Shown piece by piece: positions 11,460 to 15,382 of a DNA stretch of 20,000 nucleotides. Source of the stretch: an uncultured virus (IMG/VR IMGVR_UViG_3300020048_000118) (taxonomy: Duplodnaviria > Heunggongvirae > Uroviricota > Caudoviricetes > Crassvirales); IMG/VR virus record IMGVR_UViG_3300020048_000118. One strand, 5' to 3'. The translations under genes were made by a program, and so were the position numbers. How positions within the stretch are numbered: the stretch's first letter is position 1; each line of letters begins with the position of its first letter. A model generated the notes under the pieces. It did not search any database. It was given only the letters and a program-made list of their open reading frames with translations, and had not been told where the DNA came from.

Positions 11460-11640
11460 TTTTGGGTAATACCCCCATATTGCGTCACGCCGGCCGCGGG
11501 GAAAACCGATTATTTTTGCCCCATGGGTTGTCGGTGTGTCGGCCTTGCCCCAAATTTTTGGCCTTTTGCCCGTGCGCTCCGCATGGGCTAACAGCCCGCC
11601 CGCTCCCTAGGTGGGCGCCCCGTCATGCTAAGGAAACTGC
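11460..11640. other. GC-rich non-coding segment at the strand switch; possible genome terminus or packaging site
   Basis: Abrupt GC rise, G/C runs alternating with A/T runs, and short palindromes (GGGTAATACCC, GGGCTAACAGCCC). Lies between the divergent arms. Confidence 0.4.
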
Positions 11641-11793
11641 GGAAACGCTCAGAGTTTCCATTACACCCCGCACATGGTCGCATCATGAATCTGCCATCTG
11701 TAAGGCCTTGATAGTCACTTGCGATAATCCGTACAAGGTTTTCAAATCAGTTGCGAAAATCCGTAAACAAAGTTGAAAATAAATGTTGACATG

Positions 11794-11825
11794 TTTGGTG
11801 TTGTCAACAATCGGTCGTAACATTG
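11794..11825 (+). promoter_or_regulatory. Early promoter TTTG-N20-TAACATTG
   Basis: Bacteroidota -33/-7 architecture with one mismatch in the -7 box. The same layout recurs at 12617 and 14456. Confidence 0.7.
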
Positions 11826-12116: not shown

Positions 12117-12183
12117 GGTTAACTGACGAGTCCTAAATGGACGAAACATGGGTGAGCATAGCGAACTCATCCATGTCTTAACC
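12117..12183 (+). ncRNA. Hammerhead ribozyme type I (HH1); predicted cleavage after C12177
   Basis: GGTTAA-CTGACGA-GTCC(TAAAT)GGAC-GAAA-CATGGGTGAG(catagcgaa)CTCATCCATG-TC-TTAACC. Complete core, three stems and a GUC triplet. Confidence 0.95.
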
Positions 12184-12197
12184 AAAACAACAACGAT

Positions 12198-12416
12198 ATG
12201 AACAACAATCAAAAATCATCAGCAGACCACATCATCGAGCAACTAAAGTCAATTGACATTGATGGAGAGACAATGGAGTACATCATCAACGGAGTTGGCA
12301 TGAGTTATCAAATGCTAAGACAATTGATAATAAATTCAAGCGACTTTGACATCAACAACATCATCTCAGAGAGGGATGAAATTCACGACCAAGGAAGAAA
12401 CAAGCATTTAGGTTAA
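12198..12416 (+). CDS. Hypothetical protein, 72 aa, bracketed by two hammerheads
   Basis: In the ORF track. Its stop codon TAA forms part of HH2 stem I. Confidence 0.8.
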   Translation: MNNNQKSSADHIIEQLKSIDIDGETMEYIINGVGMSYQMLRQLIINSSDFDINNIISERDEIHDQGRNKHLG

Positions 12417-12464
12417 CTGATGAGGTCTTAATGACCGAAACGGGGCTCACGCCCCGTCTTAACC
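12411..12464 (+). ncRNA. Hammerhead ribozyme type I (HH2); predicted cleavage after C12458
   Basis: GGTTAA-CTGATGA-GGTC(TTAAT)GACC-GAAA-CGGGGC(TCAC)GCCCCG-TC-TTAACC. Confidence 0.95.
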
Positions 12465-12671: not shown

Positions 12672-13388
12672 ATGAATACACCACAAACCCTCATCGCACA
12701 CTTGCGTAACGCTGAAACAAACCACATCGGTTTCTCTTACAACATCAACACGGGCGACCACAACCCCGACCAAGGCTTCATGGTATCTATCAAGGGATAC
12801 GAGGAGACGGCTCCAAGTGGTTGCGACCTTATCGCATTCGGTAGGTCTTACTTCTTGCGCCATGCCGAGCATTTGGCCAACCCGAACTACTACATGGGAT
12901 GTTGGGTCAATGCGGGACGATTTGTCTTTGACATCTCAGAGAACGTACAGACCAAGGAGGTCGCCATCGTTCTAGGACAGCACCATGACCAAGAGGCCAT
13001 ATGGGACTGCGCTAGTGGGTCAGAGTACAGATTAATGAGAGAGGGAGACGAGCCAAGCCAAAGGCTCGAGGAGTTGAGAGAGGCTCTTAGGTCTGAGTCA
13101 ATTAGTTATGGCGAACTTGCAGAACTTCAGTCATTGTCAGAGCACATCGACAAGGACGACGTAGAATTGCTATTTGCCTCGGGGCTTGCAGAGTTCGAGT
13201 CAGACGAGAAGTCATTGGGCGACTACACAGATGCCGACTTCGATGCCATGCTACACACATTGGACGTGGCGATGGACGAGTTCTCTCAAATCTACAACCA
13301 CTCAGCCTCGAACGACTTCCGAGAGTACTACGAGATTCACATGACCCAATTGGACAACATCATCAACCTAATCAACAAACTAAAATAA
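12672..13388 (+). CDS. Multi-module early protein (238 aa from ATG 12672); N-terminal domain possibly SAM-lyase-like, acidic C-terminus
   Basis: GFMVS...YMGCW...FDISE...AIVLG...QEAIWD domain followed by a RLEELR...ESISYGELAELQSL module. Start placed downstream of the promoter. Confidence 0.75.
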   Translation: MNTPQTLIAHLRNAETNHIGFSYNINTGDHNPDQGFMVSIKGYEETAPSGCDLIAFGRSYFLRHAEHLANPNYYMGCWVNAGRFVFDISENVQTKEVAIVLGQHHDQEAIWDCASGSEYRLMREGDEPSQRLEELREALRSESISYGELAELQSLSEHIDKDDVELLFASGLAEFESDEKSLGDYTDADFDAMLHTLDVAMDEFSQIYNHSASNDFREYYEIHMTQLDNIINLINKLK

Positions 13389-13702
13389 TGAAATACAACG
13401 TAGTAATTAGCAGAACCTACGCCACAGAGTTGGTAGTAGATGCAGAGAACATCCAAGAGGTACATGATTGGTTAGAATCCAACAAGGAGACCATCAACTA
13501 CCAAGAGTTGGAGCAGTGCAACATCATCGTCGAGGACACCAACATCGAGTTGGTCAGCCCAAGCCCGAACGAGGCAAGCGAACTGCAAGACCTAGTATGG
13601 CACATCAAGGGCAAGTTAAAAGAGTACAGCCACGTCGAGGACTTCATCCCCAAGGATTTGTACAAGGCCTTGGAGCAGATGCTCGGACACGACGAGGACT
13701 AA
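13388..13702 (+). CDS. Acidic hypothetical protein, 104 aa
   Basis: TAATG-coupled. MKYNVVISRTY...VVDAE pattern typical of small phage early proteins. Confidence 0.8.
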   Translation: MKYNVVISRTYATELVVDAENIQEVHDWLESNKETINYQELEQCNIIVEDTNIELVSPSPNEASELQDLVWHIKGKLKEYSHVEDFIPKDLYKALEQMLGHDED

Positions 13703-13747
13703 CCAATAAAGGAAACGAGAGGGGTTCAATTCCCCTCATTGGTTCAA
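13701..13747 (+). ncRNA. tRNA-like minihelix (T-arm plus acceptor-stem mimic)
   Basis: AACCAAT-[11 nt]-GAGGGG-TTCAATT-CCCCTC-ATTGGTT-CAA. Has a T-loop but no D or anticodon arm. Intergenic. Confidence 0.65.
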
Positions 13748-13764
13748 ATTAAAATCAAATAGAC

Positions 13765-13977
13765 ATGAACAACAAAAACTTTATCACCGACTCTTGCCTA
13801 TCATGGCACGCCAATGACATGCGAAATGCAATTGAAATGGCCAACGGAATTCCTCCATCATTAAATGATGAGGACTGCAATCAGATGTTAACAAAATTCT
13901 TTTCAGAATATAGACAAACAATCATTGGTGAAATAAATGAACTTATGGTTATATGGGTTAAAGAAAACAAGATATGA
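13765..13977 (+). CDS. Hypothetical protein, 70 aa
   Basis: In the ORF track. A-rich leader and ATGA coupling downstream. Confidence 0.75.
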   Translation: MNNKNFITDSCLSWHANDMRNAIEMANGIPPSLNDEDCNQMLTKFFSEYRQTIIGEINELMVIWVKENKI

Positions 13978-14243
13978 ACATACAAACAATTTACTCAAGA
14001 CAAAAGTCAGCGGGCGTTGACTACATGCAACGACTCATCAACAACGGCTCGGTTTGGAAGATGGAAGGCTCAATGGGACGCGAGGCAATGCGACTGCTCG
14101 AGATGGGCATCTGCATGCTACCAAAGAAATCATTCACCGACTACTACGGAAACGTCATCCCATCACGGGACGATTTGAAAGGATGCACAAAGGGAACGTA
14201 CGCCAACGCTGTAAGGTACTGGTCTAATGGATGGGAGGACTAA
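13974..14243 (+). CDS. Conserved phage early protein, 89 aa
   Basis: MQRLINNGSVWKMEGSMGREAMRLLEMGIC fits the recurring Q.LI..G..W.L.G..GR.A..L.E.G.C motif. Confidence 0.8.
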   Translation: MNIQTIYSRQKSAGVDYMQRLINNGSVWKMEGSMGREAMRLLEMGICMLPKKSFTDYYGNVIPSRDDLKGCTKGTYANAVRYWSNGWED

Positions 14244-14245
14244 TC

Positions 14246-14443
14246 ATGAGCAATTTAACTGCACTACAACTTCGCCAGTTCCTCAATGAGATTGAGGCAG
14301 ACGGAAACGACCTATCTCTCATCGAGATAAACTTCAGACATGACGAGGACTCAGACGTAATACCAATCAACTTTGTGTTCGAGGACTTGCACGACGAAAA
14401 CAATAGCATGCTCACATCAATTGTGCTATTAAATGACAATTAA
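14246..14443 (+). CDS. Acidic hypothetical protein, 65 aa
   Basis: ATG 14246 lies just after the previous stop (MSNLTALQLRQFL...). Confidence 0.75.
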   Translation: MSNLTALQLRQFLNEIEADGNDLSLIEINFRHDEDSDVIPINFVFEDLHDENNSMLTSIVLLNDN

Positions 14444-14455
14444 ATGACAAATAAA

Positions 14456-14487
14456 TTAGGTTATACACAAGATAGTAACTAATATTG
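14456..14487 (+). promoter_or_regulatory. Early promoter TTAG-N20-TAATATTG
   Basis: Same spacing as the other two early promoters, and the same AAATAAA upstream as 12617. Confidence 0.6.
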
Positions 14488-14502
14488 TACATGCAAAACG
14501 AT

Positions 14503-14916
14503 ATGAACACAATGACAACACAAGACGGATTTACATGGTACGTTCTGCAACCCAAGGTTGCCAAGTACCTACACGAGGCCAACTACGAGGTCTATGAACT
14601 ACACGACGACGAGAGCGAGTCTCTTTGCATCGATGGTCGTAAAATTAAGGATGATAGTGGCGTAAGATACGGCATCGAGTCACCACTAGACAAGCAAATA
14701 GTTCACGCACTATGCGGAGCGGAACTGGTTCATGTATACGAGATAGTCAGAGACTTCGAGGTATGCTACGAGATTATCTTTGAGAAAAGAAGGGGTGACC
14801 TTGTATTCTTCTCTCCCCTTGCTAAGCCAAAGGCAGTCATCGACAACTTACGTGGATGTAACGCAGTAACATTCATCAGCCCAGAAGACTTCTTAAGAAT
14901 TTTAAGACATGGTTGA
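14503..14916 (+). CDS. Hypothetical protein, about 137 aa
   Basis: Frame from the ORF track; start chosen at AAACGAT-ATG. YEVYELHDDESESL motif. Confidence 0.75.
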   Translation: MNTMTTQDGFTWYVLQPKVAKYLHEANYEVYELHDDESESLCIDGRKIKDDSGVRYGIESPLDKQIVHALCGAELVHVYEIVRDFEVCYEIIFEKRRGDLVFFSPLAKPKAVIDNLRGCNAVTFISPEDFLRILRHG

Positions 14917-15070
14917 ATTTAAGATTATATACCAAGACGAGGATGGTAACGACCTATTCACTAGGAGCCTTTACTTCCCAGACAAGGAGCATGCACGCGA
15001 GCACGCCAACAAGACGATTGAGAAGCCAAACTCAAAGGCATCTCAATACGAAATACTAGAGTTGGGTTAG
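14909..15070 (+). CDS. 53-aa hypothetical protein (MVEFKIIYQDEDGNDLFTRSLYFPDKEHAREHANKTIEKPNSKASQYEILELG)
   Basis: Translated by hand. Overlaps the previous stop. Confidence 0.75.
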   Translation: MVEFKIIYQDEDGNDLFTRSLYFPDKEHAREHANKTIEKPNSKASQYEILELG

Positions 15071-15248
15071 TCCCCAACCTAGTACAACACCTACACGAGT
15101 CCCGTGTACTAAGCCAAGTCGGATCGCTTGGGGTTAGGGACACCATCTCTACGAGATTGTGCCACGTTCTTTGACATATTGGAAAAGTAATTTGGCAGTC
15201 GAATGACTGACCACTATGTACGCACACTTCATTGTGATGCGGTGAACA

Positions 15249-15284
15249 GCACGGGACAGGGTTCGAAGCCCGTCCCGTGCACAA
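15249..15284 (+). ncRNA. tRNA-like minihelix
   Basis: GCACGGGAC-A-GGG-TTCGAAG-CCC-GTCCCGTGC-A-CAA: a 12-bp helix capped by a T-loop, followed by N-CAA. Confidence 0.65.
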
Positions 15285-15343
15285 AGGCTAGCCAGCACTA
15301 GCCCTCAACGAAAGGTTGTGAAATATTGTTGTGTTTTGTTGTA

Positions 15344-15372
15344 AAAGAGCGATTGCTGGGTCGCTCTTTAAT
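15344..15372 (+). terminator. Terminator- or attenuator-like hairpin
   Basis: AAAGAGCGA-TTGCTGGG-TCGCTCTTT-AAT. The U-tract is short. Confidence 0.45.
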
Positions 15373-15382
15373 TAAAAGAAAT

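Follow-up and report, generated by a model that had tools for sequence, protein, structure and literature searches.

Do the small genes of a bacterial virus borrow the transfer RNA (tRNA) processing enzymes of the host to obtain message ends of their own? The question is raised by a 20,000-nt stretch of DNA from an uncultured virus of the Crassvirales (IMG/VR record IMGVR_UViG_3300020048_000118, hereafter the window), whose plus strand carries two short elements, E1 and E2, that resemble the upper half of a tRNA. A first-pass annotation had read both as tRNA-minihelix mimics which, together with hammerhead ribozymes, punctuate an early transcript. E1 and E2 belong to a class of mimics that is widespread, unannotated in cultured phages and missed by tRNA finders and Rfam. 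These elements probably act in cis as signals for host RNase P and/or RNase Z, because they conserve features read by these enzymes and copy the CCA-less ends of the host. In the complete reading, undescribed tRNA top-half mimics of about 42 nt would form a modular punctuation that is interchangeable with hammerheads, recruits both host enzymes and has a counterpart in the leaders of ribosomal RNA (rRNA) operons; judged from sequence comparison, the chances of this complete reading are evenly balanced. Its scope would be phages of Bacteroidota, Actinomycetota and other hosts, each small gene getting its own 5' end.

Anatomy and distribution of the mimics

The two elements and the open reading frames (ORFs) that flank E1 are the following:

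13388-13702, plus strand: 104-aa ORF upstream of E1, the last base of its TAA being position +1 of E1
13702-13747, plus strand: E1, tRNA top-half mimic (6 bp, 11-nt linker, 6 bp, T-loop, N-CAA)
13711-13712, plus strand: GG in the linker of E1, a dinucleotide enriched in linkers of the class
13748-13977, plus strand: A-rich 17-nt leader and 70-aa ORF (ATG 13765) downstream of E1
15249-15284, plus strand: E2, reduced mimic (9 bp, bulged A15258, 3 bp, T-loop, A-CAA)

The 5' side of E1 is formed by ACCAAT (13702-13707), the linker AAAGGAAACGA (11 nt, 13708-13718) and GAGGGG (13719-13724), and the 3' side by the loop TTCAATT (13725-13731), 12 paired nt (13732-13743), T13744 as the discriminator-like position and CAA (13745-13747). 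Both helices have six Watson-Crick pairs, with A13701-T13744 as a possible 13th pair. E2 has the loop TTCGAAG (15262-15268), 12 paired nt (15269-15280), A15281 and CAA (15282-15284). The geometry that had been claimed for both (T-loop, 12 paired nt, one nt and CAA) is present in the sequence, and a strict pattern scan recovers these two matches from the window and none from 300 dinucleotide shuffles. The extent of E1, from a stop codon (TAA 13700-13702) to 17 nt before the next ATG (13765), had also been read correctly. The replacement of the D and anticodon arms by a linker stands as well, although the conserved GG of the linker had been overlooked; in E1 this GG is a likely candidate for a mimic of the D-loop G18/G19, in elbow contact with the T-loop. 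E1 agrees with the t-element-type motif GGTTCRANYCC (GG-TTCAATT-CC with 12 bp); E2 has the 12-bp geometry, but its loop ends in G, outside that motif.

Loci of close relatives were located through neighbouring proteins and a nearby motif. The pairing of E1 is kept through two compensatory pair changes in the orthologues of L001, L002, L004 and L183; covariation in homologues, whose absence had been named beforehand as a refutation, is present. In L003 and L005 the homologue of ORF 13974 is immediately preceded by an extra element, whose 7+5 stem is unrelated. The covariance model proposed earlier as a check was built from 67 copies of other phages, excluding close relatives of the window (model R1); E1 is its only match in the window (23 bits, E 9e-4) and E2 is not matched. 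ARAGORN identified no tRNA gene in the window, as had been expected. Rfam 15 at E<=5 over the window matched neither E1 nor E2 and gave no tRNA (RF00005) and one weak hammerhead. A blastn search of cultured phages with the early region of the window gave no matches.

E2 varies more among relatives. Its alleles are 7+15+5 with a GG-bearing linker in L005 and L183, the same with one mismatch in L003 and L004, 9+7+3 in L002, L184 and L186, and 9+1+3 in the window and L001. All nine keep the 12-nt 3' strand, the purine and CAA, and the three allele types retain 12 bp, purine and CAA despite the loss of the linker. Because the alleles of relatives keep these parts, some of them with the GG linker, the E2 of the window is most likely a reduced allele. 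The 7+15 allele of L179 aligns weakly to the acceptor and T arm of mascRNA/menRNA (RF01684, 14.6 bits, E 5.9), a likeness of shape only and far below the gathering score of 42.5; the window itself has no match to that family. The mascRNA/menRNA family is also a reduced tRNA mimic, set however in vertebrate long non-coding RNA. Its maturation is by RNase P and then RNase Z.

The wider class comprises 158 distinct non-tRNA mimics collected by the strict scan. Their stems covary freely, and they lie on the sense strand, in most cases preceded by a stop codon and followed by an A-rich leader. Applied to 777 kb of viral sequence (127 loci with hammerheads), the same scan yielded 12 distinct hits on the sense strand and none on the antisense strand, against 0-1 in each of five shuffles; one of the 12 is a plain hairpin and probably due to chance. 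A seed pattern of linker, T-loop and a C only, with no pairing information, was also used. Among the seed matches listed, the stack is formed by 82 of 103 distinct viral and 14 of 28 cellular-genome matches; with the register fixed, each of the pairs 1-12 is formed in 80-96 of the 96 viral matches that possess an inner stem, and pair 13 in 40 of them. Since the C is part of the seed, this count presupposes the stack length. Non-seed stacks, for which no length was assumed (n=60), have 9 bp (1), 10 bp (2), 11 bp (13), 12 bp (23) or 13 bp (21), so that 57 fall within 11-13 bp and no stack reaches 14; a single shuffle yielded no stack at all.

C74 is present in 150 of the 158 elements (64 of 72 non-seed), the 3' triplets including CAA (43), CTA (39), CTC (21) and CCA (8). 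GG occurs in 64 of 69 non-seed linkers versus 32 of 69 control stretches. Aligned copies are 99% paired with a covariation of 1.15 versus 0.21 when shuffled, figures that are partly circular because the rows were chosen for pairing. The core of the class is a coaxial stack of about 12 bp, a T-loop cap, a GG linker, an N73 unpaired or weakly paired and C74, located on the coding strand at gene junctions. The mimicry of a tRNA top half proposed by the first-pass annotation finds support in the covarying stems, in the limits of the stack length and in the host-like N-C end.

Cultured phages contain the class too. Unannotated intergenic copies were identified in Mycobacterium phage Konstantine (6) and Streptomyces phage Vanseggelen (7, mostly of an 11-bp subtype); Bacteroides phage BF1-TP2 has one unannotated copy and Arthrobacter phage Glenn one loose copy, and the 18 kb examined of the cultured Flavobacterium phage elemoB gave no convincing copy. 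The 11-bp subtype, followed by a purine and C, is common in actinophages (L481, L482, L250, L251). Over the window and 8, 5 and 6 further loci, Rfam 15 gave no family at gathering score over any element; two weak tmRNA T-arm matches were obtained in L241, and DUF805b RNA adjoins one element without covering it (RF02914, above gathering, directly 3' of a mimic in L413 1467-1503, minus strand, an arrangement that would suit a mimic defining the 5' end of that RNA). The literature searched gives no description of the class: the motif is absent by term from the main texts of Weinberg 2017, Fremin 2023, Kienbeck 2024 and the Patience paper, and the supplements of the first two may hold it.

Some arrangements depart from one copy per junction. 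Four mimics in tandem within about 450 nt, ORF-less and separated by purine-rich repeats, are found in L336 (3760-4150), L318 (3733-4210) and L264 (3888-4280), and near-identical elements in a Duncaniella and in a Bathyarchaeota metagenome-assembled genome. Two junction elements of L006 (2045-2095 and 2768-2818) keep flanks and stack with non-canonical loops. A pattern with a gap too long for copies of the L006 type gave 5 loci, 4 of them with elements (two near-identical).

Gene junctions and the exchange with hammerheads

Positions were counted for the 127 of 158 elements with 500 nt of flank and a linker of at least 7 nt. In 102 of them a stop codon could be assigned upstream, with its last base 5-17 nt before +1 in 51, immediately before +1 in 3, at +1 in 7 (E1, three orthologues and three others) and within the 5' strand in 5. 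An ATG stands 11-20 nt after N73 in 33 of the 127 elements versus 32 of 635 random positions, and 20 of the 127 have no ATG within 150 nt. A second small hairpin is often present behind N-CAA. The punctuation role that had been claimed for both elements agrees with E1, at a stop-to-start junction; E2 does not mark a border between protein genes and lies inside a non-coding stretch.

The same kind of junction is occupied by hammerheads elsewhere in the window:

12117-12183, plus strand: hammerhead ribozyme 1, at a stop-to-start junction (RF00163 25.5 bits, RF03152 27 bits, both below gathering)
12198-12416, plus strand: 72-aa ORF, which follows a hammerhead here and whose homologue in L006 (66% identity) lies behind a tRNA mimic
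12411-12464, plus strand: hammerhead ribozyme 2 (fold z -4.1; repeat D3)

The predicted cut of hammerhead 1 is after C12177, 20 nt before ATG 12198, with support from the fold and varied copies in relatives. That of hammerhead 2, which holds TAA 12414-12416 within stem I, is after C12458, 19 nt before ATG 12478. The leader that follows N73 in E1 is 20 nt, compared with hammerhead products of 20 and 19 nt, and it resembles the leader of hammerhead 2 (repeat D17). Overall, the predicted hammerhead cut is 11-30 nt before an ATG in 86 of 95 cases. In RNA run X1 a contig of a relative ends with adapter (window 12158) about 5 nt before the hammerhead-1 cut site, where depth falls from 14 to 0.5; this is a weak hint of cleavage in vivo and concerns the ribozyme only.

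Homologous genes are found behind either element. Among proteins downstream of a mimic, 7 of 113 have a homologue behind a hammerhead, as in L157 and L050 (61% over 244 aa), and among upstream proteins the interchange is seen in 6 of 92. The parallel with hammerheads drawn earlier is supported by these pairs. The tandem hammerheads of phages and prophages (PMC3088659, PMC6765202; RF00163, RF03152) are described in the same stop-to-start position, with a similar leader and homologous genes; they self-cleave and leave a 5'-OH, whereas a mimic would need a host enzyme and leave a 5'-phosphate. The interchange gives a handle on why phages place ribozymes between genes, as both can be swapped and their products compared.

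Proposed processing by host enzymes and the alternatives

In its substrates bacterial RNase P recognises the T-loop and elbow, gauges a distance of 12 bp and forms pairs with N73, C74 and C75; hairpins consisting of acceptor stem and T arm are cleaved by it at the canonical site (PMC11143913). For RNase Z, the contact surface is the stack of acceptor and T helices, and other parts can largely be dispensed with (PMC3790967). Both E1 and E2 have the 12-bp distance from T-loop to +1. At their 3' ends C74 is present and C75 absent (CAA), as in host tRNA genes. For RNase Z, the helices are stacked, CCA is not encoded and the enzyme exists in the presumed host group.

The host appears to belong to Bacteroidota, as is suggested by a repeated promoter-like motif, by a motif shared with a flavobacterial rRNA spacer and by leaders that are rich in A and lack a Shine-Dalgarno sequence. 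In two Bacteroidota genomes, 22 and 29 tRNA genes (from 30 loci each) were scored: C74 is present in 51 of 51, CAA in 24 and CCA in 4, and a -1:73 pair in 33, versus 71 of the 158 elements. RNase P RNA was identified in five of five Bacteroidota genomes and RNase Z over the cut-off in three of the five. The motif GGGT[A/G]G, which we take from context and not from an alignment to be L15 of RNase P RNA, the loop whose GGU pairs with the 3' RCCA of substrates, is present in 5 of 5 host-type RNase P RNAs. Theta ribozymes at the 3' ends of phage tRNAs (PMC10879173) likewise combine Bacteroidota phages, CCA-less tRNA ends and processing encoded in RNA; they are HDV-like and follow true tRNAs, and the main text of that paper mentions neither tRNA-like elements nor RNase Z.

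In the proposed mechanism the GG of the linker would dock on the T-loop and rebuild the elbow of a tRNA without D or anticodon stems. Host RNase P would measure from this elbow and cut 5' of +1, and/or RNase Z would cut after N73, as required for the N-CAA precursors of the host. With RNase P alone, the downstream gene would begin with the base-paired mimic; with the RNase Z cut it would keep an A/C-rich leader of about 14-25 nt, the type of product left after a hammerhead. Small genes that share a long transcript would thereby become independent of one another in stability and translation, and the repeated junctions could double as swap points for gene modules. E2 would act in the same manner within a non-coding transcript. 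Cutting by both enzymes is the likeliest form on these sequence features, because C74 points to RNase P while a 3' cut is favoured by the overlapping stops and by the likeness to hammerheads.

Such processing would give bacterial viruses an equivalent of the tRNA punctuation of mitochondria, and the mimics would be among the smallest natural substrates of RNase P and RNase Z. The t-elements of plant mitochondria (PMC1920247, PMC3790967) are likewise tRNA-like with a T-arm motif; cleavage at their ends by RNase P and RNase Z sets the ends of mRNAs, and some are cut inside reading frames. They differ in the organelle setting, a protein-only RNase P, larger near-cloverleaf remnants, few copies and mapped ends, whereas the mimics belong to bacterial viruses, have about 42 nt with no D or anticodon stem and many unrelated stems, and have predicted ends. 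Model hairpins of RNase P and its natural phage substrates, the C4 and M3 RNAs (PMC11143913), share the 12-bp stack, the T-loop and N73-C74; the former are synthetic continuous hairpins with CCA and C4 and M3 are single small RNAs, whereas the mimics have a helix interrupted by a GG linker and recur at the junctions of protein genes. The 6-7 copies carried each by Konstantine (M. smegmatis) and Vanseggelen (S. coelicolor) make end mapping directly feasible. The C74-without-CCA signature also bears on the maturation of tRNA ends in Bacteroidota.

Several observations weigh against processing. The minimum free energy (MFE) fold of E1 alone (z -2.5; 4 of 200 shuffles fold equally well) does not contain the outer helix as drawn, so that this helix rests on covariation, and the MFE fold of E2 (z -6.2) closes the loop to 3 nt. 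The GG linker is lost in the E2 of the window, and the 11-bp subtype makes up 13 of 60 non-seed copies. In B. subtilis, C74 slows RNase Z. Many related genes have neither hammerhead nor mimic upstream; for the 12198 ORF, relatives were found in 14 loci, and neither element lies upstream in the 5 inspected. The distance to the ATG could be merely a ribosome footprint. CCA is rare (8 of 158 elements), whereas E. coli RNase P uses RCCA pairing (PMC11143913). In 12 of the 102 elements with an upstream stop, E1 included, an RNase P cut would split that stop and leave a message without one. Finally, in RNA run X1 (0.05 of words, contigs of a relative only) a contig spans E1 uncut, although it may derive from DNA or from a precursor.

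The last two points suit an element that acts in cis without being cut, as a stable fold or as a site for a protein that reads the elbow, insulating the ribosome landing site or blocking decay; the binder could be a modification enzyme, a ribosome site or a phage factor. This explanation fits every arrangement, including the stop codons that overlap the stem, and the small hairpin frequent after N-CAA. It leaves unexplained that stack length, N73 and C74 copy the ends of host pre-tRNAs and that the element interchanges with a self-cleaving RNA, and we consider it rather unlikely.

Cutting at both ends would free a tRNA-like RNA of about 42 nt, which could act in trans as a decoy or inhibitor of tRNA-targeting defences, an alternative already raised by the first-pass annotation, or of the tRNA-maturation enzymes of the host. 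The ORF-less tandem clusters of L318, L336 and L264 would agree with such a product. Anticodon nucleases target the anticodon arm. This arm is missing in the mimics and their positions are fixed, so that the cis reading is the stronger of the two; the occurrence of a single copy at each gene junction, its stem unrelated to the others, also suits a role in cis. The presence of similar elements in host rRNA leaders is a further point against it, and the decoy is judged improbable.

The first of these leader elements came from model R1, which matches the 5' leaders of both rRNA operons of G001 (L414 1501-1550, minus strand). Of 58 16S loci fetched, 40 had leaders of at least 350 nt, a sample weighted towards relatives of G001; in 8 of the 40 a T-arm is present on the sense strand, 186-240 nt upstream of the 16S start motif, and in none on the antisense strand. 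The eight (L414, L424, L436, L442, L443, L444, L451 and L456) lie upstream of the leader boxA-like motif, and several have an outer stem, GG linker and N-CAA, being looser than the phage mimics. Over 101 Flavobacteriaceae genomes (59 candidates scored per genome) the model matched only 3, so that the count of leaders was taken from the 16S loci. No account of mimics in Bacteroidota 16S rRNA leaders was found in the literature. Phages may have taken the mimic from these operon leaders.

The mimics could instead be DNA-level cassette boundaries like the promoter early stem-loop (PeSL) repeats, at which early genes are shuffled, the RNA fold being incidental. The genes on either side of E1 differ among close relatives, similarity is higher among copies of the same locus (6.9 of 12) than among those of different loci (5.0), and flanks are shared in L006 and L228. 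There is also a precedent in the PeSL cassettes of T4-type phages (PMC2839356), which are repeated in intergenic position among small non-essential genes with variable neighbours; PeSLs consist, however, of promoter and terminator stem-loops, whereas the mimics are T-loop structures without U-tail. Neither a promoter-like nor a plus-strand terminator-like site was identified at E1 or E2 (sigma-70 scan, which does not cover Bacteroidota promoters). The strict strand bias, invariant T-loop core, linker GG and C74 are signatures of RNA, the stems vary freely with pairing kept, and E1 and E2 have no common sequence to recombine. A selected function of this kind seems quite doubtful, and recombination is likely to be a side effect.

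Attachment sites (attP) or decaying tRNA genes, the remaining possibility, had been named at the outset as what might undo the mimic reading, and no support for them was found. The 3' halves do resemble those of tRNAs. Genes with D and T arms and almost no anticodon arm occur in L228 (671-730, minus strand), L318 (2418-2482, plus strand) and L005 (7859-7914), those of L228 and L318 scoring 45 bits with the Rfam tRNA model; they are possible intermediates between tRNAs and mimics, and in a history of decay L228 and L318 could be read so as well. Against this, the 5' strand of every mimic is complementary to its own 3' strand and shows compensatory changes, and a locus may contain up to 7 copies. 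The best tRNA match is 20/25 for E1, 18/25 for E2 and at most 22/25 for the 158 elements (252 tRNA genes compared, from organisms other than the true host), and no integrase was named among the 24 window ORFs scanned. This explanation is largely rejected and would come as a great surprise.

The surroundings of E2 and other features of the window

The start of E2 is 179 nt downstream of the stop at 15070 and its end 98 nt short of ATG 15383, away from any stop-to-start junction. E2 is surrounded by the following features:

15071-15382, plus strand: structured non-coding stretch of about 310 nt (z -5.4, 0 of 100 shuffles)
15166-15187, plus strand: boxA-like motif, nearly identical to the sequence directly 3' of the tRNA in a flavobacterial rRNA spacer (L322)
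15285-15372, plus strand: hairpins, U/G-rich segment and terminator-like hairpin 3' of E2

The stretch holds several hairpins and is conserved in relatives with indels and stem changes. The motif at 15166-15187, which we take to be an antitermination boxA, is also present in L193, L195, L199, L233 and L240, and in several large-phage loci it lies near tRNA-like sequence; this suggests antitermination across the non-coding stretch. A promoter at 15166-15196 had been considered and was dropped, since the likeness to the flavobacterial rRNA spacer points to the boxA-like motif. The segment 3' of E2 is a possible candidate for a small RNA whose 5' end E2 would set. It is duplicated in L001 and L184 and also seen in L187, and in L179 it gave a weak FopS match (E 1). 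Pairing of its U-rich part with phage start regions is not enriched (mean -10.4 vs -9.5 kcal/mol; -12 or lower in 6 of 26 phage starts vs 18% of random windows).

Directly after the stop of ORF 14909-15070, a structured motif at 15060-15140 is conserved in relatives. The loop of its hairpin could pair with a downstream stretch of 4-5 nt (co-varied in L187), and two more stems are present. The motif resembles a pistol-type ribozyme; Rfam gave no match.

The minus strand of the window contains virion, tail-spike, endolysin-like and GroEL genes, and the plus strand small ORFs of unknown function from 11850, which appear to be early genes from the layout. The motif TAA(C/T)ATTG stands at 11818, 12641 and 14480, 23-32 nt before ATGs or slightly closer and with a similar A/T-rich upstream part. 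These sites are likely early phage promoters of the Bacteroidota type, judged by the consensus of that group. The GC-rich stretch at 11480-11700, between the divergent gene blocks, is possibly a genome end or packaging region. Between 17040 and 18420 several small ORFs have repeated starts and ends, e.g. ATGACAAACAATAAACAACAAAC and GAACAAACCTACGGAGGAGG, which suggests a duplicated gene family.

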